Position numbers and translations under genes: made by a program
Assembly: GCA_044450345.1 (NCBI GenBank)
Contig: JBIOIY010000001.1
Span: forward strand, 96,001-160,000
Source of the DNA: Thermodesulfovibrionales bacterium
Lineage (GTDB): Bacteria > Nitrospirota > Thermodesulfovibrionia > Thermodesulfovibrionales > UBA6898
Direction: 5' to 3'
Length of the DNA: 64,000 bases
The notes under the pieces: generated by a model
What the model was told of the DNA's origin: nothing
Seen by the model: only the letters and a program-made list of their open reading frames with translations
Database searches by the model: none
Part shown: piece by piece, positions 35,374-38,966 of the stretch
How the letters are laid out: every line of letters starts with the position of its first letter
Numbering within the stretch: position 1 is the first letter of the stretch

Positions 35374-36912
35374 TCAGTAGGCTTCCTTAATCCTGCCCTC
35401 GACCGCGGGCTCAATCCTCTTGTGCTCCTTAATGTATTCGATAACCGCGTCCCTCAGCCATCTCCCCGAATCGTTGTACACGAGTCTCCCGCCTTTCATC
35501 ATGCCGCCGACTGCCGCAAAGTCCTTTGACTCTCTGACCGCAGCGCCAAACACTGTATATCCGTCGCCCCCTGCCGCGAGGAAGTCGTTCGTTGCAACGA
35601 CATATTCTCTGCCGGGATCGGCCTGACGTCCATCGACGACGATCTCCCGGACCCTCGACCCCGCCGGCGCGGATGGATCAAAAGAAAAAACAATGCCTGA
35701 CACCTGGGGGAATCTTCCCTCGCCTTGTTCGATCGCAGACACACCATGTTCCAGCGCCTGCCTGAGCTGAGTACCCGTCAGCTTGACGGCGACGACATAA
35801 TTGTCGAAGGGCAGAACCGAATAGACGTCCTTCACCCGTATCGGACCTCTGTTGATACTGGTCCTTATCCCGCCGCCGTTTATTATTGCGGCATCGGCTC
35901 CCGACATCTGCCTCATGATGTCGGCAATGAGGTCCCCGAGATTTGTTTCTCTCTTCCTGACGTTCTCGCCGTCGAGGTCGACCCCAGCCGTTCCGATAAC
36001 TTCACCGAGAGCGGCATCGGCCTTCCTTTCATATTTATCGACTATCGCAATTACCGTCTTGTCCTCTCTTCCAGGGGAGGGTACGATCTCATCAAGTCTT
36101 CCTGTAAATCCGACGACCTTACCGTCCTCGACGGAAAGATCGAGCACTCCGAGCGCCTTTCCATGCTCCCACGCCTGAACTATAATCGTATCGCCAACAG
36201 TCGCGGGCCTGTCCAATTTTGTGTGAGAATGCCCCCCTACGATAACATTTATCCCCTTTATGTCTTCGGCAAGCGCCCTGTCTGCGGCATACCCTGTATG
36301 GGAGAGTACGATTATGACATCGACGGTTCCCTTCAGTTCTCCCGTATACCTGAGTACCGACTCTGCGGGTGATTTAAATTTCAGTCCCGCTACATTCCTG
36401 GGATGGGTCGCTATCGGGGTGTCTTCAGTCACCACGCCTATTATCCCCACTCTCAGGCCGCCTATTTCTCTTACCACATAGGGTTTGAGTGAACCAAGAC
36501 CCTCGACGTTTGCGCCGAGCACAGGAAATTTTGCCTCGGCTATCCTTTTCCTGAGAACATCCTGCCCGAAGTCGAATTCATGATTGCCCACTACCATCGC
36601 ATCGAATCTCATAGCGTTCATCATCTCGATAGCGGACCCTCCCTTGAAAAAGTTCGCCCAGTTGTTGCCCTGTATCATGTCTCCCGCGGCCAGCAGGAGC
36701 GACGGCATCTCTGCGCGGAGCCTCCGGACTTCACCGGCAAGATATGCGATGCCCCCTTGAAGCTCATCAGAACCGAGCGGCTTGTACGGCTCTGCAAAGC
36801 CGTGAAAATCATTCACATAAAGTATCCTGAGGACATGCTGTTCACCCCCTGCCGGTGTAAGAAAAAAAAAGAAAAGCATCAACGAAATCAAAACCGGTAT
36901 AAACCGCTTCAT
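35374..36912 (-). CDS. Secreted 5'-nucleotidase / metallophosphoesterase
   Basis: Signal peptide; NDFHG, AGD, GNHEFD, SHTG, GGHSH, NGGGIR, LPFDN, GGDGY. Confidence 0.94.
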   Translation of the reverse strand: MKRFIPVLISLMLFFFFLTPAGGEQHVLRILYVNDFHGFAEPYKPLGSDELQGGIAYLAGEVRRLRAEMPSLLLAAGDMIQGNNWANFFKGGSAIEMMNAMRFDAMVVGNHEFDFGQDVLRKRIAEAKFPVLGANVEGLGSLKPYVVREIGGLRVGIIGVVTEDTPIATHPRNVAGLKFKSPAESVLRYTGELKGTVDVIIVLSHTGYAADRALAEDIKGINVIVGGHSHTKLDRPATVGDTIIVQAWEHGKALGVLDLSVEDGKVVGFTGRLDEIVPSPGREDKTVIAIVDKYERKADAALGEVIGTAGVDLDGENVRKRETNLGDLIADIMRQMSGADAAIINGGGIRTSINRGPIRVKDVYSVLPFDNYVVAVKLTGTQLRQALEHGVSAIEQGEGRFPQVSGIVFSFDPSAPAGSRVREIVVDGRQADPGREYVVATNDFLAAGGDGYTVFGAAVRESKDFAAVGGMMKGGRLVYNDSGRWLRDAVIEYIKEHKRIEPAVEGRIKEAY

Positions 36913-36960: not shown

Positions 36961-37119
36961 AGGATGTGGAAAAGTCATTGAACCCCGCCTCTCCCCCTCT
37001 TAAGATAAGAGGGGGTTAAGGGGAGTTATGATTTCTGAAGGGGGACACAGAGGGGTGGATTCCCGTTTTCACGGGAATGACATCTAAGGGCCGAAATAGA
37101 TTTTTTCAACAACCTGCTA
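36961..37119. repeat. MITE-like composite with nested REP families
   Basis: Imperfect inverted ends AGGATGTGGAAAAGTC / GATTTTTTCAACAACCT enclosing CCCCCTCTT-AAGAT-AAGAGGGGG and ATTCCC-N8-GGGAATGAC. Confidence 0.6.
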
Positions 37120-37184
37120 AAGATAGAGACATGCGCCGAAATCGGGGAGATTCATTCGGACAGATGCACTCTCTGCATCGTTTC

Positions 37185-37231
37185 AAAAAAAGAAAGGGCG
37201 TACCTCATATAAGGCACGCCCTTCTTTTTTT
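37185..37231. terminator. Bidirectional-looking intrinsic terminator downstream of the zinc-ribbon gene
   Basis: A tract, AAGGGCGTACCT-CATATA-AGGCACGCCCTT, T tract. Confidence 0.8.
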
Positions 37232-37242
37232 CTTCTTCTTAG

Positions 37243-37259
37243 GAGACCCGACCGGTCTC
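37243..37259 (-). promoter_or_regulatory. Putative bacterial SECIS hairpin
   Basis: GAGACC-GGUCG-GGUCUC; loop begins 22 nt after in-frame UGA at 37278-37276. Confidence 0.65.
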
Positions 37260-37449
37260 AGCAACCCCTGGGGCTTCAGCCGCCGCCCGAAAACAGACTG
37301 CTCATCTCCGAAAAACTAAGGGCACCTGACAATTTCAGCTGCTTCTCGCCGCATTTCGGACAGGCCTCCTTTTGAAGTTCAAGATCATTGTCGAGCGCTG
37401 TTGCAAACTCGCTCCCGCATTTCTGACATTTACACCTGTTATATGACAT
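37258..37449 (-). CDS. FmdB-like zinc-ribbon protein, probable selenoprotein (63 aa, Sec58)
   Basis: AAGGAGG RBS, CxxC..CxxC, C-terminus SGGG-UGA-SPRGC-UGA, SECIS-like hairpin, terminator. Confidence 0.72.
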
Positions 37450-37484
37450 CACGTAATCCTCCTTAATAAACCAAATGTTACCTA

Positions 37485-37509
37485 GTTGCACTGTTGCACA
37501 ATTATAACA
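37485..37509 (-). promoter_or_regulatory. Extended -10 promoter with tandem GTGCAAC repeats
   Basis: TGTTATAAT on minus strand (37509-37501) followed by GTGCAAC x2. Confidence 0.5.
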
Positions 37510-37820
37510 TACTTCTTCCGTAAAATCACTCTTCTTCTCCGCCCCTTCATTTTTAGACTCTAATTCTTCACCCTTCAACGGACAAACCCGGTCCTTAAAA
37601 AACTCATACTACAGCAGCGGCACAGCAACAAGCGTCAGGACGATCGCCGCAACGGCACCGAACATAATCACGGAGGATCTCACGTATGTGCCCTTCTGCA
37701 TAGCAGGCACCATTCGCACAGCCAACGCCGACATGACGTAGATGATGGCAAATGGAGGAATTGCGGAATGGCTTATATTGCAAAAGCCCGGGGATATGTG
37801 GAAAATGTATAGGTAACACA

Positions 37821-38966
37821 ATGAAAAAACTTTTTTTAATCACCATTATCATACTCACTGCGGCAATGCCACTTTCTGCTGAAAAAACAGCGGACGTGTC
37901 TTTGAGGTATAGCAGACAGGACACAGCAGTGCGCATCGTACTCGAGGCGGGTGAAGACCTCATAAAGAACTCTAAAATCTCGGTTTCCTTGGCTGCAATA
38001 AAAGTAGATTTTCCCCTCGCGTTCGAGATCATAAAACCGAAGGATTTTTTCTATGAGACTGCAAAAAAGGACCGTTCCTTTTACATCTTTTTGAAAGACG
38101 TCACCGATGTAAAATCATACCGGCTTGCCGGTCCGTCGAGACTCGTTTTCGATCTCACACTGGTCGCAAAGGCCCAGAAAGAGGCGGCGCCGAGACCCGA
38201 CCAGAAGACCGTTCAATCAACAGGACCTCTGGTGAGCCCCGGGCCTCCGGCCCCGCAGCCGCCCCAGGCCGGGCAGAAACAGCAGCCTGCACCGTCAACA
38301 GGACCTCTGGTGAGCCCCGGGCCTCCGGCCCTGCAGCCGCCCCAGGCCGGGCAGAAACAGCAGCCCGCACCGTCGCCTGCCCAACCGGCGGAAAAGACTC
38401 GTAAAAGAAAAGTGATCGTCCTTGACCCTGGTCACGGCGGCTACGATTATGGCATCATATCTCAGGACGCCAGGGAGAAGGATGTCAACCTCGCCTTATC
38501 AAAAGACCTGAGCGCAGCAATGGCAAAGAAGGGGTTGACGGTCTTTCTTGACCGCAAGGTCGACCAGTCGGTTTCACTCAGCGAAAGAATACATTTTTCG
38601 AACGCCAAGAACCCCGATATTTTCATCAGCATCCACGCTGCCTCATGGAACGGCTTCGCGATCTATGTCTCTTCGGCCGAAGACGTAAATATCGACGCGG
38701 CGGCCAGGCTCTACAGCCTATCATCACGACAGATCAAGTATCTCGCCGGCAGCAAAGAGGCTGCAAGGGTGATCGCTGACAGTCTGAAAAAAGAATTCAA
38801 CGTCGAAGTAGTAATGAGAGAACTGTCCCTGCCCGTCCTCAATTCTCTCAATGCACCGGCAATTATGATAGAATATCCTTCCCTGAAATCGTACGCGTCA
38901 GACCAAAAAATGCGCGAAAGGTTTGTCGGTTCAATCATGAAAGGCATCGCCGCTTATGAACAATAA
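37821..38966 (+). CDS. N-acetylmuramoyl-L-alanine amidase (Amidase_3)
   Basis: Signal peptide, RLVFD, Pro/Gln linker, DPGHGG, EKDVNL, ISIH, IMIE. Confidence 0.92.
   Translation: MKKLFLITIIILTAAMPLSAEKTADVSLRYSRQDTAVRIVLEAGEDLIKNSKISVSLAAIKVDFPLAFEIIKPKDFFYETAKKDRSFYIFLKDVTDVKSYRLAGPSRLVFDLTLVAKAQKEAAPRPDQKTVQSTGPLVSPGPPAPQPPQAGQKQQPAPSTGPLVSPGPPALQPPQAGQKQQPAPSPAQPAEKTRKRKVIVLDPGHGGYDYGIISQDAREKDVNLALSKDLSAAMAKKGLTVFLDRKVDQSVSLSERIHFSNAKNPDIFISIHAASWNGFAIYVSSAEDVNIDAAARLYSLSSRQIKYLAGSKEAARVIADSLKKEFNVEVVMRELSLPVLNSLNAPAIMIEYPSLKSYASDQKMRERFVGSIMKGIAAYEQ
38217..38372 (+). repeat. In-frame 78-bp tandem duplication in amidase linker
   Basis: Two copies (38217-38294, 38295-38372) of STGPLVSPGPPA(P/L)QPPQAGQKQQPAP. 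Confidence 0.95.

Follow-up and report, generated by a model that had tools for sequence, protein, structure and literature searches.

A short gene on the minus strand of the window (the whole 64,000-nucleotide stretch of DNA analysed here) runs for 57 codons from its ATG (MSYNRCKCQKCGSEF...SLFSGGG) to an in-frame TGA, continues through five sense codons, AGC CCC AGG GGT TGC (SPRGC), and then meets a second TGA. This raises the question as to whether the first UGA is a stop codon or, as a preliminary description of the locus had proposed, a codon for selenocysteine (Sec), and, if the latter, what a small zinc ribbon with Sec near its C terminus might do. Our analysis of this sequence and its relatives indicates that the gene is very probably real and monocistronic and encodes a 63-residue selenoprotein. 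The recoding steps are backed by comparative sequence evidence; selenium insertion itself we infer.

Gene layout and expression signals

The features of the locus, in the order in which they are read on the minus strand, are the following:

37509-37501, minus strand: extended -10 element TGTTATAAT (TGnTATAAT), read from the sequence and kept as TGnTA[T/C]AAT in 6/6 genus members
37498-37493, minus strand: one copy of TGCAAC, which with the copy below forms the repeat pair GTGCAACAGTGCAAC, spanning 37485-37498
37490-37485, minus strand: TGCAAC box, downstream of the -10 element and upstream of the ribosome-binding site, invariant in the alignment of 6/6 genus members
37464-37458, minus strand: ribosome-binding site AAGGAGG, 8 nt upstream of the ATG, read from the sequence
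37449, minus strand: start codon ATG, read from the sequence
37449-37258, minus strand: predicted coding sequence of 63 residues, MSYNRCKCQKCGSEFATALDNDLELQKEACPKCGEKQLKLSGALSFSEMSSLFSGGG-U-SPRGC, based on the conserved start, the invariant residues and dN/dS
37278-37276, minus strand: in-frame TGA, residue 58, very probably read as Sec, based on the conserved TGA and the codon periodicity beyond it
37260-37258, minus strand: second TGA, the predicted true stop, read from the sequence
37259-37243, minus strand: SECIS-like hairpin GAGACC-GGUCG-GGUCUC, based on folding and covariation
37224-37185, minus strand: strong intrinsic terminator with a 14-bp stem (37224-37193) and a T-run, based on folding and a terminator scan

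All of the features that the preliminary description had placed (the -10 element, ribosome-binding site, ATG, both TGAs, SPRGC, hairpin and terminator) were re-read at the same positions, and re-measurement again put the GGUCG loop 22 nt past the first UGA. It had also held that the open reading frame track is wrong at both the start and the end, and the translation table 11 list indeed gives a 100-amino-acid (aa) ORF at 37276..37578 that begins at a TTG. The start at 37449 is conserved, and in most relatives a GGAGG-type ribosome-binding site precedes the homologous codon.

We propose that the extended -10 promoter and the ribosome-binding site would drive the gene on their own. In the alignment of the six genus members, the -10 element is also kept where the end of an RND permease gene sits directly upstream. 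A scan with the sigma-70 consensus found no -35/-10 pair, and no -35 match, at the promoter of the small gene. The TGCAAC box may be an operator or an element of the 5' UTR, and the repeats are perhaps an operator for an ArsR-type regulator now lost from this genome (see below). RNA-library contigs of 151-215 nt from three studies cover 37222-37471 only, and their two variants are synonymous in the read-through frame. Such contigs do not prove transcription, nor do they reveal its level or where a transcript begins and ends, and they are therefore only a weak hint of a small separate transcript.

Conservation of the TGA codon and of the tail beyond it

A six-frame search of 61 related genomes gave matches in 41, of which the best 30 loci were examined. 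In all 30, the first in-frame stop is TGA and falls at the same place; 5-7 sense codons separate it from a second stop, which varies (TGA in 12, TAA in 12, TAG in 6). The same pattern is seen in the named Nitrospirota/Thermodesulfovibrionales species-representative records, where the first stop is TGA at 43/43 loci and the second is TAA in 20, TGA in 16, and TAG in 7; this set is not independent of the first, since it comprises largely the same genomes. Homologs among these named records include those of Candidatus Sulfobium mesophilum (87% identity) and Nitrospiraceae bacterium Ngb-4 (89%). Position 58, at which the preliminary description had asked for Cys or TGA, is thus TGA in every locus of both sets, and no homolog among the loci examined ends after GGG with TAA or TAG, the outcome that it had named as counting against a selenoprotein.

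The residues after the TGA are conserved as protein. The tail is SPRGC in 24 of the 30 loci and SPSGC, SPKGC (two loci), SPAGC, SPSGGC, or SPFGGCR in the others, and its length differs by whole codons only. When 401 genomes of the phylum were searched with a profile, 27 gave matches, with one TGA in 18 of the 28 places listed, and the members found come from several families of the order and from two other families of the class. Distant tails read U-NPWGC, U-SPFGC, U-TPRSC, U-NPFGC, U-NPWSC, and U-SPTGC, and two further members were found separately. The motif of the family is G-G-U-[S/N/T]-P-x-[G/S]-C-COOH, in which the U-x4-C spacing is conserved, with U-x5-C in three variants. Conservation of the SPRGC tail, which had been suggested as a check, therefore takes the form U-[S/N/T]-P-x-[G/S]-C followed by a variable true stop.

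Selection on the ribbon itself is strong: dN/dS is 0.02-0.10 within the genus, this genome included, with synonymous sites near saturation. Residues invariant in the 30 sequences are C6, C8, C11, C30, P31, C33, L38, F53, G56, G57, U58, S59, P60, G62, and C63.

One possibility is that the UGA is nevertheless an ordinary stop that ends a 57-residue ribbon at GGG, and that the conservation downstream belongs to an RNA element that mimics SPRGC, for instance a regulator site or an element that stabilises the 3' UTR. Public protein records all end at this codon, the energy of the hairpin is unexceptional, and there is no Cys form to anchor a Sec/Cys pair. Against this, the first stop is always TGA, ahead of a next stop that can be any of the three codons, and the bases in between change as codons do. 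Among the 28 rows whose tail has five codons, the first two bases of each Ser, Pro, Gly, and Cys codon are the same throughout, and it is the third base that differs; the Gly codon, for example, is GGN with T in 8, G in 5, C in 9, and A in 6. Arg in the tail is encoded by AGG, AGA, CGG, and CGA. This three-base periodicity, with its synonymous changes, crosses the TGA, extends over the five codons, and ceases exactly after the second stop; together with the length shifts in whole codons, it makes an ordinary stop highly improbable.

In bacteria generally, SelB and release factor 2 compete at UGA, and the base after this UGA is invariantly A. Both observations would suit a selenium-dependent switch, in which a 57-residue form is made when selenium is scarce and a 63-residue form when it is plentiful, each with a role of its own. 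Nothing in the data favours a role for the short form, and the invariance of the tail indicates that selection acts on the long form, so we regard such a switch as very unlikely.

A degenerate DNA pattern of the tail alone recovered 27 dual-CxxC ribbons among 62 parsed metagenome matches. Four metagenome contigs (L162, L181, L203, and L204) carry divergent ribbons with 42-53 residues before the TGA, a GGG-U-NPWGC or GGG-U-SPKGC tail, and MxxxEYxC-like N termini. Judging from these divergent ribbons, the family may reach beyond Thermodesulfovibrionales. A metagenome search for relatives with five distant members found none.

A covarying hairpin at the true stop

The hairpin begins 16 nt past the UGA, has a 6-bp stem, and overlaps the true stop, so that it lies mostly in the 3' UTR, as is expected where Sec is six residues from the end of the protein. 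Across the alignment of 30 sequences, standard pairs fill 87.8% of 205 pair cells; sliding the partners by 1-3 columns lowers this to 17.6-51.2%. Changes on both sides occur in 4 of the 7 pairs (columns 46-56, for instance, are AU in 21 and GC in 8), the covariation score was reached by 0/500 shuffles, and RNAalifold finds the same helix. The loop varies among GGUCG, GGUCC, GGUUC, GGUCA, AGUUN, and, rarely, CGGCG. The expectation that the hairpin would be conserved in homologs was thus borne out as a covarying helix.

The folding energy is not exceptional (z = -0.54; 59/200 shuffles fold as well), and an Rfam scan of 37000-37700 at E <= 10 gave no match at a gathering score, with sub-threshold, terminator-driven matches only. 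Because the hairpin energy is unexceptional and the promoter has no -35 box, the case for a selenoprotein rests on the conservation, covariation, and codon periodicity in the relatives, which lie far beyond chance.

Selenocysteine machinery of the genome

The assembly (86 contigs, 91% complete) holds the whole of the Sec machinery, selA, selB, selC, and selD, that the preliminary description had proposed looking for. There is a SelA match of 523 bits and a SelB match of 382 bits, encoded by adjoining genes, as well as a tRNA-SeC gene and a selD that itself has one in-frame TGA. Three fdhA-like genes also have one in-frame TGA each (these and selD lie on contigs C28, C2, C38, and C26). We propose that codon 58 would be read as Sec by this SelA/SelB/SelD/tRNA-Sec set, with the 6-bp GGUCG-loop hairpin directing the recoding.

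SelA is present in 60/61 relatives, and the sole relative without it (G015) is also without the small gene. We rejected this co-occurrence as support, since a trait shared by 60 of the 61 relatives does not discriminate.

The genome carries another small dual-CxxC selenoprotein gene at C27:12626-12781 (locus L044), of the known family NF041197, with one TGA and a score of 48.8 bits. Its two CxxC motifs flank the TGA, and a hairpin of 8 bp begins 1 nt past that codon.

Absence of the family from current lists

The 40 close database proteins all cover at most 90% of the 63 residues, and hence end at the TGA; they bear either names that are generic guesses or the label "hypothetical protein." None of them is a Cys form. 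The preliminary description had also asked for Cys at position 58 in homologs, and none was found to have it: among 98 profile matches in 1.84 billion representatives there was no Cys-for-Sec form, and the family members all end at profile position 57. The Cys-rich tails of other FmdB paralogs were considered as Cys forms and rejected, as they are not alignable. With no Cys homolog found, the family offers no Sec/Cys pair of the kind that prediction pipelines usually call for.

NCBIfam has no model for the family, which is also absent from the 119 families in Table 1 of a May 2026 review (PMC13188914); the entries of that table nearest to it are the GOS FmdB-family selenoprotein and NF041197, both compared below. 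Full-text searches of the literature returned nothing on it; a mention in the Haft papers (references 63 and 64 of the review) or in the deep-Sep supplements is possible. A protein atlas search with the 57-aa reading returned unnamed clusters only. The authors of deep-Sep allow that the method may miss selenoproteins without Cys homologs, and the absence from lists would be explained if methods of this type miss Cys-less families. Taken together, this appears to be a bacterial selenoprotein family missing from current curated lists.

Gene neighbourhood and a lost efflux operon

The context of the gene was examined at 38 loci, with 100 of 124 flanking ORFs scanned against Pfam and 24 short or gene-overlapping ORFs left out. 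At 20/38 loci, from five families, the small gene is closely preceded on its own strand by the end of an AcrB-type RND permease gene. All four RND contexts that were extended (4/4) read ArsR/SmtB regulator, TolC-like protein, MFP (periplasmic adaptor), RND permease, small gene. The ArsR regulators have in common an ELCVCQ motif and, beyond it, two conserved Cys, and they share a C-terminal ECxEFQKKTGKCDM. The pump matched no NCBIfam RND subfamily above cut-off and is therefore neither clearly a metal pump nor clearly a drug pump. At three loci, the same ArsR regulator and a NapH-like ferredoxin are upstream. DsbD_TM genes are upstream at three others, beside a thioredoxin-like gene at two of them (L034 and L036); at L033, there is DsbD_TM only, and the second upstream ORF matched no family.

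In the window, one trace of this arrangement is left:

37608-37531, minus strand: remnant of an RND permease gene (its 3' end), carrying a TAC-to-TAG change, based on tblastn (26 aa, 65% identity) and alignment to the ends of intact genes of the genus

Orthologs of the regulator, adaptor, channel, and pump were found nowhere else in the 86 contigs. The sequence evidence thus indicates that the arsR-tolC-mfp-rnd operon, about 6 kb in relatives, is deleted here, with a relic of the permease left behind. A divergent amidase gene (37752-38966, plus strand) abuts the relic stretch (37531-37830, minus strand), and the ORFs of 100, 142, and 70 aa listed in that stretch are probably not genes.

In a genus mate (L082, G004:C10:148300-151560), the upstream RND permease is in at least three ORF fragments (355, 181, and 224 aa). 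This looks like a decaying pump beside an intact selenoprotein gene.

The downstream neighbour (35374-36912, minus strand) encodes a secreted UshA/5'-nucleotidase-like protein with no in-frame TGA, and it scores under the cut-off of the UshA-like selenoprotein model NF041198 (118.5 versus 275 bits). We rejected it as a functional link, since it adjoins the small gene at only 6/38 loci, mostly of the genus.

Predicted structure and possible function

In the predicted product, residues 1-45 would form a dual-CxxC zinc ribbon of FmdB-like type; a short helix would follow, and then a flexible GGG-U-SPRG-C tail. Its two CxxC knuckles (C8-x2-C11 and C30-x2-C33) lie near the N terminus, about 17-18 residues apart, with a low-complexity tail after them. 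An AlphaFold model built with the family alignment gives pLDDT values of 85-91 for the ribbon, a helix at residues 46-54, and disorder over residues 55-63. A Foldseek search of the PDB found nothing at E <= 0.001, the top rows being generic zinc ribbons (MCM, HypA, and rubredoxins), and neither the predicted model nor the Foldseek search gave a thioredoxin fold. Pfam and NCBIfam matches are all sub-threshold: FmdB TIGR02605 (22.2 versus a cut-off of 31.3 bits) and Zn_ribbon_8 PF09723 (20.2 versus 34.4 bits), which are the best of them, HVO_0758, and HypA. Some relatives carry precomputed PF09723 matches.

What might such a tail do? In the reading that we favour, U58 and C63, perhaps with the invariant C6, would form a mobile selenol/thiol ligand arm that captures a soft metal(loid) or a reactive sulfur or selenium species in the cytoplasm. 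The arm would act beside the ArsR(CVC)-regulated membrane export or redox systems whose genes adjoin it in most relatives; here, with the operon lost, the gene would persist alone under purifying selection. A ligand-arm function of this kind within ArsR-governed stress systems is a tentative proposal, to which we give somewhat less than an even chance. The preliminary description had inferred a role as a redox or metal sensor, which the ArsR-type operons of relatives make more plausible. The link to efflux is circumstantial, since the gene has its own promoter and both the operon and the ArsR regulator are absent from this genome.

The main alternative to the ligand arm is a redox tail, in which U58 and C63 would cycle through a selenylsulfide and pass electrons to or from a thioredoxin-like or DsbD-type partner, or a NapH-like membrane partner. 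In mammalian thioredoxin reductase, a C-terminal Gly-Cys-Sec-Gly arm cycles in this manner via a selenylsulfide. The conserved U-x4-C spacing and the disorder of the modeled tail would suit such an arm, as would the three loci with DsbD_TM genes upstream (two of them with a thioredoxin-like gene) and the three with a NapH-like ferredoxin. Most uncharacterised selenoproteins are, moreover, thought to be redox proteins (PMC13188914). The commonest neighbour is, however, an ArsR-headed RND efflux operon and not a redox system, and the protein lacks a thioredoxin fold; we consider a redox tail unlikely, though a serious competitor.

Export genes could also be read differently. The description of TIGR02605 likens FmdB tails to bacteriocin precursors, and a Gly-rich C-terminal core could be modified and exported, with the ribbon as its leader. 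The TolC-like, MFP, and RND genes upstream in relatives would then serve export, and radical SAM genes lie near two loci. Against a ribosomal peptide precursor, no conserved maturase, protease, or ABC exporter adjoins the gene at the loci examined, the regulator is of the ArsR type, and here the gene stands alone, with strong purifying selection over the whole ribbon. We regard this reading as very improbable.

Returning to the ligand arm, a more specific form of the proposal is that these small cytoplasmic proteins make up an obligate-Sec zinc-ribbon family that has no Cys form anywhere, overlooked because current predictors all lean on Sec/Cys pairs, whose arm is a cytoplasmic capture or hand-off partner, or a sensor, of ArsR-controlled envelope efflux of a soft metal(loid) or reactive chalcogen. 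We regard this fuller version as rather doubtful; if true, it would give selenium a new role, in a selenoprotein that assists an RND pump.

Implications

The gene would add to the bacterial selenoproteome a family that is truncated everywhere in public annotation, and it exposes a blind spot of method, selenoproteins without Cys homologs. It would also provide a compact natural bacterial SECIS that overlaps a stop codon and could serve Sec-tagging designs. More broadly, it would link selenium use to ArsR-regulated efflux loci in the Thermodesulfovibrionales that cycle sulfur in soils, peat, and groundwater. For this genome, the annotation should be corrected by extending the CDS to 37258 and marking residue 58 as Sec.

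Comparison with known systems

With the FmdB family (TIGR02605, CxxC_CxxC_SSSS; PF09723), the protein shares small size, two CxxC knuckles, and a low-complexity C-terminal tail rich in Gly, Ser, and Cys. It differs in its N terminus, which is MSYNRCxC with an extra invariant Cys6 where FmdB proteins have MPxYEYxC, and in its Sec tail. Two further loci (L078, G056:C74; L252, G056:C257) encode a canonical MPLYEY-type FmdB ribbon that ends GGT-TGA-GVSSC-TGA, with the second stop covered by a GCUGAGC-AGUU-GCUCAGC hairpin, and a paralog of this protein in the same genome has the Cys-rich tail GSSCSGCSSSSCSSCH. Sec tails thus seem to be present on standard FmdB proteins too. Given the MPLYEY-type U-GVSSC member and its Cys-rich paralog, the Sec tail appears to be the selenium counterpart of the Cys-rich tails of FmdB proteins.

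A selenoprotein on an FmdB-type ribbon has been described before, as the "Putative regulatory protein, FmdB family" of the GOS data. There, Sec replaces a knuckle Cys (CxxU/UxxU), a form seen in 2 marine reads, compared with 807 homologs that have Cys (Zhang and Gladyshev 2008, PMC2398784); the recent review lists the entry as UxxU with 2 Sec (PMC13188914). In the family described here, by contrast, the four knuckle Cys are kept in 30/30 sequences, the single predicted Sec belongs to the C-terminal tail, and the searches yielded no homolog with Cys in its place. NF041197 (CxxC_Se_CxxC; OS_HP3 or hypothetical protein DW) is likewise a small dual-CxxC selenoprotein, but its Sec lies between the two CxxC motifs, and the model gives no match at this locus even at E <= 10.

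Sec a few residues from the C terminus is also found in UXX-star, KCU-star, and the Cys-Cys-COOH protein SaoC, families that are thought to bind metals (PMC13188914, Table 1). These have other folds and motifs, and their NCBIfam models give no match here. With Sec so close to the C terminus, in those families as here, the SECIS must be located at or past the stop.

The closest parallel to the putative SECIS itself comes from the same genome, in which two of the fdhA-like genes have CCCC-GGUCU-GGGG and GUGGCC-GGUCU-GGCCGC hairpins 15-18 nt past the Sec-TGA. The fdhF SECIS of Escherichia coli has the same character: its stem is short and GC-rich, its apical loop is of the GGUC type, and it lies at a fixed short distance 3' of the UGA. 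The hairpin described here is like the fdhA elements in its short GC-rich stem, its GGUC-type apical loop, and its short distance 3' of the UGA. Counted from the U of the UGA, its loop begins at nt 26, as against nt 22 in fdhA, and so sits 4 nt further on; and whereas the fdhA and fdhF elements lie inside coding sequence, this one overlaps the true stop.
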